Below are positions 698 to 5,694 of a DNA stretch of 7,967 nucleotides, one piece after another. Made by a program: the position numbers and the translations under genes. Under the pieces are notes generated by a model that was not told where the DNA came from, searched no databases, and saw only the letters and a list, made by a program, of their open reading frames with translations. The DNA comes from a virus (taxonomy: Duplodnaviria; Heunggongvirae; Uroviricota; Caudoviricetes), in IMG/VR virus record IMGVR_UViG_2695420699_000019; one strand, given 5' to 3'. Position 1 is the stretch's first letter. The number at the start of each line of letters is the position of its first letter.

Positions 698-1060
698 GGG
701 GCTGATTCTGGATTCGACGGGATTTGCGAAACCCAAGGTGCATGCCGAGGGGCGGTTGGCCTCGTAAAAAGCCGCAAAAAATAGTCGCAAACGACGAAAA
801 CTACGCTTTAGCAGCTTAATAACCTGCTTAGAGCCCTCTCTCCCTAGCCTCCGCTCTTAGGACGGGGATCAAGAGAGGTCAAACCCAAAAGAGATCGCGT
901 GGAAGCCCTGCCTGGGGTTGAAGCGTTAAAACTTAATCAGGCTAGTTTGTTAGTGGCGTGTCCGTCCGCAGCTGGCAAGCGAATGTAAAGACTGACTAAG
1001 CATGTAGTACCGAGGATGTAGGAATTTCGGACGCGGGTTCAACTCCCGCCAGCTCCACCA
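698..1060 (+). ncRNA. ssrA: tmRNA (transfer-messenger RNA, 10Sa RNA), 363 nt
   Basis: Starts GGGGCTGATTCTGGATTCGACGGG and ends GGGTTCAACTCCCGCCAGCTCCACCA (tRNA-Ala-like acceptor/T-arm with encoded CCA). Contains the internal tag reading frame. Length and sequence match E. coli ssrA as I recall it. Confidence 0.97.
787..819 (+). other. tmRNA mRNA-like domain: tag-peptide reading frame ANDENYALAA followed by TAA (a second in-frame TAA at 820-822)
   Basis: GCA AAC GAC GAA AAC TAC GCT TTA GCA GCT TAA read directly from the sequence; this is the canonical E. coli proteolysis tag (the first Ala comes from the charged tmRNA). Confidence 0.9.
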
Positions 1061-1189
1061 ATCATGATTGGACGGTGTAAGGACAACACCAACAAAAACA
1101 GGAAGTTAGCAGTCTCAGCAGGACACCGACCAGACGGTGAGGAGACAAAAAAGGATACGCAAAGGAGCCGCGGCTCTCAAGTGTGAAAG

Positions 1190-1217
1190 AAGCCCGCAAA
1201 TTGCGGGCTTTTTTATT
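1190..1217 (+). terminator. Rho-independent terminator-like hairpin downstream of ssrA
   Basis: Perfect GC-rich inverted repeat GCCCGC (1192-1197) / GCGGGC (1203-1208) with loop AAATT, followed by TTTTTTATT (1209-1217). It lies about 130 nt past the mature tmRNA 3' end. It may terminate the ssrA precursor or insulate the downstream cargo operon. Confidence 0.5.
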
Positions 1218-1269
1218 GATCAGTCAACAATAAACAGTAACCGAATGAGAATTTAATAAGGATATTCAT

Positions 1270-2301
1270 ATGGAAGCTACTGTGGATTCGATTGATTTTC
1301 TGATCCGTAGTGAAGATGATTTTCTAAACTTTCTGGAAGAAATGAAAGCCCGAGAGGGGCTTGATTCTAAAGAGTTTATTTTCCCTAACGTAAAGTTTGC
1401 AGGCTGGCCATCCTTAGACATAAATGTAAAAGGAGAGCGGTATCATTCATCAATTACATCAGCAATGTTGTTTGGTATGTCAATGCTCAACGAGGAGATA
1501 CAGCGGGCGTTTGCAACCATACGATACGGATCGCAGAATCTTCAACGCTTGACTAATGAAGACAAGCAACGACTTGATATAAATTTTAAAATTAGCGAAG
1601 GTTCTAGTGATGCGGAAGGCACCACTGACAAGATCATCAACGCAGTAACTGATTTTTTGCGAGATACTATGTCTGGACTGAACGGCTGGCAGAAAATGCT
1701 TGTTATAATCACAATGGTTGGCGCGGCCAGCACATGTGGTTATCACTACATTTCAGAAAATGCCGTAACAGAAAGACATGCAACTGATCGGCAGGTTGAA
1801 ATTGCAAAAACCACATCCGATGGCATAAACAAAGCCATAGAAGCAACATTAGATTATAAAATCTATGGGAAATCAGCGATTAGCGATAAAGTTACTAGTC
1901 ACGGACAAGCAGGTAAAAGTGCTTTAGTGAAGCAATTAGCTGCTGATCCTACTGTCGAAACCGTGACTTTAGGAAATGAGAAACTAACACGACAAGACCT
2001 AAATACCTACAACAGCCGACAATCTGTAGATAGAGAACGTAAAGAACGAACTGATATATTTTCCATCAAAGGTGTAACCAGAACAGGGCCAACAAATCAG
2101 GATATTAATATTAACGTTGTTAGGGTCTCTAATGACGAATGCTTCACAATCAAAGCTTCAGCTGATGTTATCACCCAAGATGAGTTGACAGCTATTGTTG
2201 ACGCTTTGTCAAACAACTCTCATATTAAAATCAGTTACTTAGAGGTAATTGAAAAGGGTGCTGTTTCTATAGGTCAGTTCAACACTATTGTTTCAGAATA
2301 A
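1270..2301 (+). CDS. Hypothetical protein, 343 aa, no family recognised
   Basis: Long ORF with a good RBS (AAGGA at 1258-1262, 7 nt before the ATG). Strongly acidic N-terminus (MEATVDSIDFLIRSEDDFLNFLEEM). One hydrophobic stretch (WQKMLVIITMVGAASTCGY, about residues 140-158) that could be a single transmembrane helix or buried core. No Walker A or other catalytic motif recognised. AT-rich relative to smpB. Confidence 0.8.
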   Translation: MEATVDSIDFLIRSEDDFLNFLEEMKAREGLDSKEFIFPNVKFAGWPSLDINVKGERYHSSITSAMLFGMSMLNEEIQRAFATIRYGSQNLQRLTNEDKQRLDINFKISEGSSDAEGTTDKIINAVTDFLRDTMSGLNGWQKMLVIITMVGAASTCGYHYISENAVTERHATDRQVEIAKTTSDGINKAIEATLDYKIYGKSAISDKVTSHGQAGKSALVKQLAADPTVETVTLGNEKLTRQDLNTYNSRQSVDRERKERTDIFSIKGVTRTGPTNQDININVVRVSNDECFTIKASADVITQDELTAIVDALSNNSHIKISYLEVIEKGAVSIGQFNTIVSE

Positions 2302-2352
2302 TCACTTAACCCCATTTATGTCGGTTGAGGTTATAAGTCACGGAGACCAGAT

Positions 2353-2697
2353 ATGTCCTTAAAGTATGCACATGAAAAATTTCATACTGCAGTACTTACT
2401 CTTGCGGGCCATGGAAGTATTCAAGAACGCTTGATTAATTCGTATGTTTTTAGCCTTGGGCATCTTAAAACAGCCGATGATATTCCAAATGCCTTACAAA
2501 GCAGGTTCGATGAATTATGTAAGGAACTGACTAAGTTTGATGCCACTGGCGATGAGGGGCGAGTTCAAGCAACAGTATCAAAACTTAACGATTTCGAGAT
2601 CAATAAACTGATCGAAGATATTGTCAGTCTTAACGATGATATTTGCATGAAATTGGCTCTGACGGATGAGACTTACCAAGACATACACCAAAGTTAA
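2353..2697 (+). CDS. Hypothetical small acidic protein, 114 aa, no family recognised
   Basis: ORF 51 bp downstream of the 343-aa ORF on the same strand, so probably an operon. RBS GGAG at 2342-2345, 7 nt before the ATG. Net acidic by my residue count (about 19 D/E versus about 10 K/R); looks helical. Followed by a terminator hairpin. Confidence 0.7.
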   Translation: MSLKYAHEKFHTAVLTLAGHGSIQERLINSYVFSLGHLKTADDIPNALQSRFDELCKELTKFDATGDEGRVQATVSKLNDFEINKLIEDIVSLNDDICMKLALTDETYQDIHQS

Positions 2698-2724
2698 TTG
2701 ATTAAATTCAAAAAGTTAACGTTC

Positions 2725-2756
2725 AACCAGCCAGTTTTTGGCTGGTTTATTGTCTT
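2725..2756. terminator. Probable bidirectional intrinsic terminator between convergent genes
   Basis: Perfect 8-bp stem AACCAGCC (2725-2732) / GGCTGGTT (2740-2747) with loop AGTTTTT, then a T-rich tract on the plus strand (TATTGTCTT); on the minus strand a TTTTT run follows a few nt after the stem. Lies between the stop of the 114-aa gene (2697) and the stop of the minus-strand 70-aa gene (2782). Confidence 0.45.
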
Positions 2757-2781
2757 ATAATATTCTTGCTCGAATGATGCA

Positions 2782-2994
2782 CTATTTATGATGTAATCCG
2801 GACATCAGTTCATGGACAAGATTATCTCTTTCATTGTGTTGCAACCGTAAATGCATAGCAAAAAGGTGAGCACTATCCTCATTCCTCTTCAAGCCATGCT
2901 GTTCAAGATACCCGAAAAAACGGCTTCTCTTATCCGCTATTTCCTGAGTCTGACGTGCAACATTTACCAAATTTTCTAGCGTTTTTCTTGGCAT
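2782..2994 (-). CDS. Hypothetical small protein, 70 aa, no family recognised
   Basis: Minus-strand ORF with a near-consensus RBS (AGGAGG, 7 nt before the ATG; plus-strand complement CCTCCT at about 3002-3007). MPRKTLENLVNVARQTQEIADKRSRFFGYLEQHGLKRNEDSAHLF..., no Cys, basic N-terminus. Lies immediately downstream of the invertase on the same strand. Confidence 0.65.
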   Translation of the reverse strand: MPRKTLENLVNVARQTQEIADKRSRFFGYLEQHGLKRNEDSAHLFAMHLRLQHNERDNLVHELMSGLHHK

Positions 2995-3035
2995 ACTATT
3001 TCCTCCTGAAATTGTTGTAATTCACTAGGATATTC

Positions 3036-3062
3036 ATTTTAATTTGTATCATTTAGTACCAA
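3036..3062 (-). promoter_or_regulatory. Possible sigma70 promoter for the 70-aa gene (TTGGTA - 15 bp - TAAAAT on the minus strand)
   Basis: Minus-strand reading: -35 TTGGTA (complement of 3057-3062), 15-bp spacer, -10 TAAAAT (complement of 3036-3041), about 40 nt upstream of the start codon. Pattern match only; the spacer is short. Confidence 0.2.
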
Positions 3063-3192
3063 AACCGCTATCAATTAACAAAGCCATCGTTGTGGTTTAC
3101 CTTGCAGCCGTTTTTTGTCATTGACTCTATGTGAAAATAATGAATCATCATGAGATTGGCTCACACGTTCTTGAATTCGACGAGCTGTGTCT

Positions 3193-3747
3193 TTATTTAT
3201 CTCCTGCCGGAAACCTCTGATACAAAGTCGATACGCCAACATCATAGATAATCGCAACTTTCTGGCGCGGAACTCCTGATGCAATTAATCGTCCGGCTTG
3301 TGCCCATTGTTCTGGTGTAAGTTTGGGACGACGTCCACCAATTCGTCCCTGTGCGCGAGCAGCTTCCAGTCCAGCTTTTGTTCGTTCAACAATCAGTTCT
3401 CGTTCCATTTCAGCCAGGGCCCCCATCACATGAAAGAAAAAGCGCCCCATTGGGGTACTGGTATCAATTGAATCCGTCAGACTACGAAAGTTGATGCCTC
3501 GTTCGCGCAACTCCTCCACCAGCACGACAAGATGCCGCATACTGCGCCCCAGTCGGTCCAGTTTCCAGACCACCAGCGTATCGCCTGCCGATAATGTCCT
3601 GAGCAGTTTTTTCAGTCCCGGCCTTTCGGACTTTGTACCGCTTATCTTGTCTTCAAAAATCAGCTCACATCCTGCACAGTTCAGCGCATTACGTTGTAGA
3701 TCTGTGTTCTGGTCATTTGTTGATACGCGTACATAGCCAATAAGCAT
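3193..3747 (-). CDS. Serine-recombinase DNA invertase, Gin/Pin/Cin/Hin (Din) family, 184 aa
   Basis: Translation from the Met at 3747: MLIGYVRVSTNDQNTDLQRNAL...DTLVVWKLDRLGRSMRHL...GRFFFHVMGALAEMERELIVERT...GRIGGRRPKLT...YDVGVSTLYQRF. Contains the catalytic-serine motif YVRVSTNDQ and a C-terminal HTH region, and is close to e14 Pin/Mu Gin as I recall them. RBS GGGGGA 6 nt before this ATG. The ORF track's longer start (3783, MASFLLLSGGST...) is probably not used. Confidence 0.93.
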   Translation of the reverse strand: MLIGYVRVSTNDQNTDLQRNALNCAGCELIFEDKISGTKSERPGLKKLLRTLSAGDTLVVWKLDRLGRSMRHLVVLVEELRERGINFRSLTDSIDTSTPMGRFFFHVMGALAEMERELIVERTKAGLEAARAQGRIGGRRPKLTPEQWAQAGRLIASGVPRQKVAIIYDVGVSTLYQRFPAGDK

Positions 3748-3801
3748 GGTAGATCCCCCTGACAAAAGCAGGAATGATGCCATTTGCTCGTTATTTCTGC
3801 A

Positions 3802-3827
3802 TTTTCATAAACGTTGGTTTGGGAGAA
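3802..3827 (+). other. Din-type 26-bp recombination crossover site (site a): TTTTCATAAACG-TT-GGTTTGGGAGAA
   Basis: Two imperfectly symmetric 12-bp half-sites around a central TT; resembles hix/gix sites (hixL as I recall: TTCTTGAAAACC-AA-GGTTTTTGATAA). Lies 55 bp upstream of the invertase start, as in Mu gin/gixR. The right half-site encodes the conserved GLGE junction of the tail-fibre cassettes. Confidence 0.6.
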
Positions 3828-4040
3828 GCGGCAAAACGGAATGTGGGCAACGGGGAAAACCAAATCCCTGATATGTCTTTCTGGACGGTTACTGGTGGCA
3901 ATGGAAATTTTGTGATTCGTCAACCTGACGGGCTAATCACTCAGATGGTTACTGTAAGTATAAGTGGTCCAGTGGCGATGAATGGAATGACTGATAATGC
4001 TTATGCCATTACAGGTTCTAATAAGTCTTATATTGCCACA
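3828..4040 (+). pseudogene. Fragment of a tail-fibre variable cassette (first 71 codons only), identical to the start of the cassette at 5998-6210
   Basis: Region 3814-4040 is an exact copy of 5984-6210 (encodes [71 protein letters not shown]). It stops abruptly at 4040, where sequence from inside the invertase gene begins. Confidence 0.6.
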
Positions 4041-4367
4041 ACCCATCACATGAAAGAAAAAGCGCCCCATTGGGGTACTGGTATCAATTGAATCCGTCAG
4101 ACTACGAAAGTTGATGCCTCGTTCGCGCAACTCCTCCACCAGCACGACAAGATGCCGCATACTGCGCCCCAGTCGGTCCAGTTTCCAGACCACCAGCGTA
4201 TCGCCTGCCGATAATGTCCTGAGCAGTTTTTTCAGTCCCGGCCTTTCGGACTTTGTACCGCTTATCTTGTCTTCAAAAATCAGCTCGCATCCTGCACAGT
4301 TCAGCGCATTACGTTGTAGATCTGTGTTCTGGTCATTTGTTGACACACGTACATAGCCAATAAGCAT
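4041..4367 (-). pseudogene. Truncated second copy of the DNA invertase (N-terminal 109 codons only)
   Basis: 4042-4458 repeats 3422-3838 with 4 substitutions. It encodes MLIGYVRVSTNDQ...GRFFFHVMG, then runs into unrelated antisense tail-fibre sequence (CGNIRLIRT...). Lacks the C-terminal part of the invertase including the DNA-binding HTH. Confidence 0.85.
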
Positions 4368-4421
4368 GGTAGATCTCCCTGACAAAAGCAGGAATGATGC
4401 CATTTGCTCGTTATTTCTGCA

Positions 4422-4827: not shown

Positions 4828-5688
<861 letters not shown>

Positions 5689-5694
5689 TAATCC

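Follow-up and report, generated by a model that had tools for sequence, protein, structure and literature searches.

An allelic alternative to rexAB: a prophage-borne protein family of conserved membrane-type architecture, found as cargo beside repressors and at prophage ends

Lysogen-expressed exclusion genes are a well-known kind of prophage gene, and a few of them are close enough to the locus described here to serve as a reference. The Rex system is made of the cytoplasmic protein RexA and the membrane protein RexB, the latter with four transmembrane segments. P22 SieA, T4 Imm and Sp, and HK97 gp15 are small (pro)phage membrane proteins that block genome entry, and BstA is soluble and has a KilA-N domain. 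Accessory genes expressed in the lysogen ("morons") also include genes that are not devoted to defence, such as bor and lom of lambda. In prophage BTP1, bstA is a single gene immediately downstream of the cI repressor, a synteny that is conserved across diverse prophages, and its product localizes to sites of phage DNA replication (PMC8585504). The region between cI and N is a mosaic hotspot where the abortive-infection genes rexAB and, in BTP1, bstA are found, and few promoters of a lysogen are more active than that of the repressor (PMC8585504). SNIPE, or PD-lambda-1, is a membrane-anchored nuclease acting at genome injection, and consists of an N-terminal transmembrane helix, a DUF4041 domain and a GIY-YIG nuclease (PMC13190303).

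The window analysed in this work is the whole 7,967-nt stretch of DNA from the IMG/VR virus record IMGVR_UViG_2695420699_000019. A sequence-only reading had singled out two of its reading frames, called A and B hereafter, as a self-contained operon bracketed by hairpin terminators, coding for two unrecognised proteins that were put forward as a defence or anti-defence module. These genes and their surroundings are the following.

1-483: smpB of E. coli, at the start of the window
698..1060, + strand: ssrA (tmRNA), detected by ARAGORN and by Rfam RF00023 (295.8 bits), an E. coli chromosomal landmark adjoining the island
1061..1214, + strand: conserved ssrA trailer, ending with a terminator hairpin at 1186-1214 (−19.3 kcal/mol, z −5.1)
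1270..2301, + strand: gene A, 343 aa, RBS AAGGA at 1258-1262, member of phrog_6191, under purifying selection
2353..2697, + strand: gene B, 114 aa, acidic (net charge −8), RBS GGAG at 2342-2345, dN/dS 0.15
2725..2747, no strand assigned: bidirectional terminator-like hairpin separating B from the convergent ORF C (−15.2 kcal/mol and z −5.0 on one strand, −16.2 kcal/mol and z −5.4 on the other)
2782..2994, − strand: ORF C, 70 aa, convergent with B and travelling with it in most window-like loci

Both reading frames turned out to be real and placed as had been described, since ORF calls, Shine-Dalgarno matches and purifying selection all agree. The matches of A and B each lie 7 nt 5′ of the ATG, and the two genes are co-oriented with a gap of 51 nt. 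Relative to an 87%-identical locus (L012), dN/dS was 0.15 for B, at a dS of 0.49, and 0.066 for the C-terminus of A. Between A and its Cronobacter counterpart, pN was 0.10 for a pS of ∼0.77, at which synonymous sites are saturated. The two bracketing hairpins are real as well (z about −5), but the upstream one is not specific to the operon, because it terminates the ssrA trailer, which 4073 of 5426 complete E. coli genomes carry. Upon folding, the A-B spacer gave no structure (z −0.07), hence no terminator separates the two genes. To call the pair a self-contained operon was an overstatement, because no sigma-70 match of at least 9/12 is present in the 55 nt that run from the upstream hairpin to the ATG of A; by eye, only a weak 8/12 candidate was seen for a promoter of A (TCAACA-16 nt-GAGAAT, ∼1224-1251).

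In 2 of 9 window-like loci, gene A is broken by a frameshift or a nonsense mutation (L010, 124-1156, and L019, 1270-2300). Because of these broken copies, A may be decaying in the present prophage remnant. Purifying selection nonetheless remains strong across the family.

The E. coli locus that carries A, B and C is a mosaic prophage remnant. Several complete E. coli chromosomes match region 1061-3200 of the window at 100% identity, and a full copy is present in 46 of the 5426 complete genomes. The gene order in the matching genomes is ssrA, A, B, C, pinE, invertible tail-fibre genes and P2-type tail genes; in another assembly, the same A-B-pin-tail-fibre block runs on into Mu-type baseplate genes. 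The G+C content of the A-B-C stretch is 37-41%, compared to ∼50% in its flanks, which points to a foreign origin. In the window, A, B and C fill the interval from pinE to the prophage end, where the cryptic prophage e14 of K-12 has mcrA. This likeness is positional only, as mcrA encodes a type IV restriction enzyme, a protein unrelated to A.

To place the three proteins, we scanned A, B and ORF C against Pfam, NCBIfam and PADLOC, and found no match; with PADLOC-DB v2.0.0, no component was hit at E≤1 by any of them. A matched a single profile of phage proteins, phrog_6191, whose function is unknown (E 6.8e-38), with residues 7-340 aligned to profile positions 5-331 of 338 and the same order of domains. 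The sequence-only reading had recognised neither A nor B, and both are indeed real, uncharacterised and prophage-carried. A word-based search with A returned 76 clusters from Enterobacterales, all labelled "hypothetical protein". The profile search with hmmsearch, which covered 1.84 billion representatives, gave 832 cluster representatives at E≤1e-3 and 483 at E≤1e-10, nearly all of them 320-350 aa long, and the exact A sequence was present on at least 1000 contigs. When 77 family members were scanned with Pfam, only scattered single chance hits appeared. A literature search on the RefSeq accessions and on phages PhiR12, phi458 and mEp332 yielded no functional study of the family. The papers on HepS and SNIPE describe unrelated proteins, and the GenBank label "T2SS GspM containing protein" borne by the PhiR12 and mEp332 homologues had no Pfam support. 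We conclude that A truly belongs to a large prophage-borne family that is uncharacterised and has a conserved membrane-type architecture. Such a family is worth a name, and it brings a new domain fold to proteins that are now "hypothetical" on more than 1000 contigs. The parts of protein A are listed below.

1270..1683, + strand: residues 1-138, conserved alpha/beta N-terminal domain with the motifs GWP..I.VKG and EGSS/T
1696..1752, + strand: residues 143-161, single hydrophobic segment and candidate transmembrane helix (Kyte-Doolittle 1.41)
1774..1944, + strand: residues 169-225, two long helices forming a hairpin after the membrane segment (AF2 secondary structure, pLDDT 50-67)
2032..2298, + strand: residues 255-343, C-terminal beta domain with an OB-fold

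The N-terminus of A is acidic, as had been noted, with 13 D/E against 7 K/R in the first 60 residues. The hydrophobic segment noted as a possible membrane anchor was also found: the best 19-residue hydrophobic window is residues 143-161, and its Kyte-Doolittle (KD) value of 1.41 is borderline in this protein, but the segment keeps its position in the whole family. Across the 77 homologues, one hydrophobic segment lies at the same position (median start 132), with a mean maximum KD of 1.73, and 70% of them reach 1.6 or more. In the model of A, the segment is a helix spanning residues 139-154. The full-length model is mediocre (pLDDT 67), and the N-terminal domain, for which a confident model was obtained, had no fold match in searches of the PDB and BFVD. 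The C-terminal domain is a five-stranded beta-barrel superposable on known OB-folds, and is most like ligand-binding proteins that are periplasmic or secreted, such as SilF/CusF, the B subunits of AB5 toxins and YgiW. Mean pairwise identity in the family is 28.8% for the N-domain versus 16.6-18.0% for the C-terminal half, the helical hairpin being the least conserved part (16.6%). The flanks of the membrane segment have a net charge of +0.2 on the N-terminal side versus −0.56 on the C-terminal side, a weak positive-inside signal. Together with the 138-residue acidic N-terminus devoid of a signal peptide, the slightly more positive N-flank would favour an N-in/C-out topology. Pfam, PADLOC and fold searches did not suggest an effector chemistry for either domain. 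MotB, which provided the only PDB sequence matches to A (E 0.01, limited to the transmembrane-plus-helix region), was rejected as compositional.

We then looked at the genomic contexts of A, with loci drawn from phage records, IMG/VR, GTDB genomes and metagenomes, and a locus scan that used the closer family alignment. Relatives of A are almost always in prophages. Among the 24 non-redundant loci with a called upstream gene, this gene was an HTH_3+Peptidase_S24 repressor in 12, and a Phage_CI_repr in 2 more. Where read, the repressor-sized ORFs upstream of A homologues were co-oriented and 26-290 nt away. On the downstream side, 5 N antiterminators and 5 convergent integrases of the lambda type were among the neighbours; in one locus icd is on the side opposite the integrase, so that A lies between the attachment site and int. 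Other relatives border att, int or pin at the ends of prophages, and the homologues of Cronobacter and Mangrovibacter (80-82% identical) occupy the same place after the ssrA trailer. As for distant members (24-28% identity), those of Mu-like transposable phages are in the orientation of the repressor, two genes downstream of an HTH repressor-like gene; a second setting is terminal in a P2-like phage, after gpD, and a third is near an integrase. The A family thus occupies repressor-linked and prophage-end cargo slots, positions that are probably transcribed in the lysogen.

As a side observation, an unannotated 343-aa ORF is present ∼1.1 kb downstream of the A homologue in the Cronobacter loci L004-L006 (8157-9188), and is followed by a DUF7079 gene.

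In lambdoid phages, A homologues are found downstream of cI and upstream of N, whereas the window copy is instead at a prophage end. In phi458, the homologue is 46% identical to A, and the flanks of the slot (the 3′ part of cI and the N region) share ∼96% identity with their counterparts in lambda, SfI and ev243, where rexA-rexB lie in between. The same flanks enclose other cargo as well: two other hypothetical genes in HK542 and HK244, and an NYN-domain protein in ev099; in Dewey and Louie the slot is apparently empty, as judged from query coverage. In mEp332, a phage with lambda immunity, cI is followed at 23 nt by a 345-aa gene, which hhalign places in the A family (probability 100%, E 1.4e-50, over 328 aligned columns). 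At the lambdoid loci, A is a single gene with N directly downstream. We conclude that the A family is an allelic alternative to rexAB. Lambda and mEp332 amount to a natural swap, with a common immunity region that holds rexAB in one and an A-family gene in the other.

How does A compare with the systems described above? With RexA/RexB, the A family shares the slot, directly after cI and before N, the presumable co-transcription with the repressor in the lysogen, and a membrane component. It differs in that A is one protein with one hydrophobic segment, and a profile comparison with lambda RexA by hhalign showed no relationship (probability 0.3%). Nor is there a multi-pass partner that would correspond to RexB beside A: B has no segment above KD 0.85, and in lambdoid phages N comes directly after A. 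Like bstA, A-family genes are single prophage genes just 3′ of a cI-type repressor, but A has a central membrane segment and lacks any Pfam domain, as do the 77 family members. SNIPE is also a single protein with one inner-membrane helix, and may be a mechanistic analogue for an action at genome entry; A differs by the lack of DUF4041 and GIY-YIG (no Pfam or PADLOC match) and by the place of its helix, central between two folded domains. By analogy, the genome-entry block of SieA, Imm/Sp and gp15 is the mode that we would favour for A, but these proteins, which we set against A by description, are much smaller and have neither its N-terminal domain nor its OB-fold. Our searches did not relate A to any described system by homology.

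Taken together, architecture and position suggest that A may be a stand-alone exclusion or defence protein of the prophage at the inner membrane, carried by temperate phages as an accessory gene; of the readings considered this is the most likely, and we give it an even chance. An anti-phage role, whatever its form, also appears about evenly balanced, and any specific mechanism is much less certain. The earlier proposal of a defence or anti-defence candidate is in this respect retained in part: the repressor-linked context and the rexAB slot point to a lysogen-expressed exclusion or defence role for A, but anti-defence is unsupported, and defence is favoured over it because the slots of the A family are probably lysogen-expressed.

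A possible course of events is as follows. A would be produced in the lysogen, downstream of the repressor or at prophage ends, and would insert in the inner membrane, with its N-terminal domain in the cytoplasm and its C-terminal half in the periplasm. It would then protect the cell from other phages, either through superinfection exclusion, i.e. a block of genome entry, or through a membrane-triggered abortive response. The variable C-terminal half may confer specificity and the conserved N-domain may perform the common step. Such a division into a common effector or anchor and a variable recognition part would fit the data, because the N-domain is conserved, while the C-terminal half is divergent and probably periplasmic.

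A search for experiments or homologies linking the A family to defence gave none, and PADLOC had no hit. The main rival explanation, which we regard as rather unlikely, is that A is a membrane protein for lysogenic conversion or for the phage lifecycle, acting on the envelope, on colonisation or stress tolerance, or on the lysis-lysogeny switch, with no anti-phage role. The positions of A are indeed typical of morons in general, its OB-fold is closest to that of periplasmic or secreted ligand binders, and neither of its domains is a recognisable effector. Moreover, even the Rex proteins have been proposed in a preprint to aid the transition from lysogeny to lysis (bioRxiv 10.1101/2021.04.19.439022). 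However, in the alleles that we read, near-identical flanks hold exclusion genes annotated as RexA/RexB, and BTP1 has bstA at the same position (PMC8585504). In addition, the phages that carry the A family are lambdoid, Mu-like or P2-like and come from several genera, and a function of phage against phage suits this distribution better than one related to a host niche.

Coming back to the exclusion reading, its broadest form is one that we hold tentatively, somewhat on the doubtful side: the A family might be an unrecognised and widespread single-protein anti-phage system, interchangeable with rexAB, in which an N-domain of novel fold would act as effector or in signalling, and the fast-diverging, membrane-tethered OB-fold half would recognise phages at the envelope. 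If the family is anti-phage, it adds a common defence or exclusion protein that has no homologue among known systems and is found in Enterobacterales and other Gammaproteobacteria, in lambdoid, Mu-like and P2-like prophages.

The situation of gene B is different. Its homologues form only 6 clusters, all at least 84% identical, and no match to it was found in phage genomes, Pfam, PADLOC, PHROGs or PDB sequences. B and C are restricted to window-like E. coli loci, where A is at least 94% identical to that of the window wherever this could be measured. They are absent from ∼40 other non-redundant A loci, as determined with tblastn and phmmer --max on every fetched locus, and are missing even beside the 80-82%-identical A of Cronobacter and Mangrovibacter, as well as in all lambdoid, Mu-like and P2-like contexts. 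The A+B pair is kept in the 87%-identical variant L012.

These data bear on the two-gene module initially proposed, in which a membrane effector or toxin, A, would have an obligate small acidic partner, antitoxin or regulator in B. Co-orientation, the 51-nt spacing, the lack of a terminator in between, purifying selection on both genes, the maintenance of the pair in L012 and a similarly low G+C are all in keeping with it. Conserved co-occurrence had been set beforehand as the test for such a module, and it was not found: the few close homologues of B are missing from every other A locus, including those where A is 80-82% identical, and in the cI-N slot A stands alone, followed directly by N. 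Since B is absent beside all other A homologues, it is not a conserved partner of A, and we consider the obligate module to be improbable. B is a real gene, and judging from its distribution it behaves, like C, as a lineage-restricted add-on or passenger of this E. coli island that the A family does not require.

The sequence-only reading had also described B as net acidic, which is exact (charge −8), and had evoked anti-restriction DNA mimics. With its small size and negative charge, B could in principle be an anti-defence protein of this type, but acidity alone is not diagnostic, and we found no match to Antirestrict/ArdA or to any other family (Pfam, PADLOC, PHROG), no phage homologue and no PDB sequence match. 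Furthermore, B is placed as prophage-end cargo beside a lysogeny-type gene, and not in an early or leading region. We therefore deem this hypothesis highly implausible.

ORF C is a second lineage-restricted orphan, with no family hits (Pfam, NCBIfam, PADLOC, PHROG), and shares the bidirectional hairpin at 2725-2747 with B.

Upstream of A, the ∼150-nt ssrA trailer (1061-1214) is 85-92% identical to that of other genera. In K-12-type genomes, it is at the right (far) end of CP4-57, just before ypjA. It contains invariant blocks such as GACAAAAAAGGATACGCAAAGGAGCCGCGGCTC, and is much better conserved across genera than the synonymous sites of gene A. This trailer may have a function in the tmRNA precursor, serve as the attachment region, or both. 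We considered the possibility that the island is an ordinary insertion at the tmRNA site, at the 3′ end of ssrA, and rejected it, as the downstream sequence is the conserved trailer. At one locus (L001, 33213-33243), an inverted 31-nt copy of the ssrA 3′ end is found just past ogr of the P2-like tail block, which suggests an old copy of the attachment site and an inversion within the mosaic island.

Downstream of A, B and C, the window enters an inversion module, one site of which is inside B.

3193..3783, − strand: pinE-type DNA invertase (RefSeq annotation of the identical locus; Resolvase + HTH_7), marking the adjoining tail-fibre inversion module of the prophage
3800..3825, no strand assigned: pix crossover site TTTTCATAAACG-TT-GGTTTGGGAGAA, identified from the sequence, one inversion breakpoint in L011
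2575..2600, no strand assigned: Pin-type quasi-recombination site inside B, GTATCAAAACTT-AA-CGATTTCGAGAT, the other inversion breakpoint in L011

In L011, a locus of the draft E. coli genome GCA_042170565.1 (4560-5788), the segment corresponding to 2587-3815 of the window is inverted between the quasi-site of B and the pix site. The inverted 1.2-kb segment comprises the 3′ end of B, ORF C and pin, and the event yields a 122-aa variant of B. The inverted B junction was present in 0 of the 5426 complete genomes. A programmed switch of the B C-terminus by Pin was therefore rejected as a regular event, and the L011 inversion looks like a rare event at a secondary site.

Rearrangements have affected the inversion module. 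Part of pin is perfectly duplicated over 300 nt (3422-3721 and 4042-4341), which gives rise to a truncated second pin ORF (3933-4403). A 67-nt repeat carrying the pix site is present in three copies, starting at 3809, 4429 and 5979, beside shuffled fragments of tail-fibre and tail-fibre-assembly genes. The tail-fibre region is interrupted by a full-length Rfam match to the sRNA isrC (5295-5417, 150 bits), which overlaps an ORF at 5263-5691; from our own reading of its sequence, this ORF looks like a candidate IS transposase orfA.
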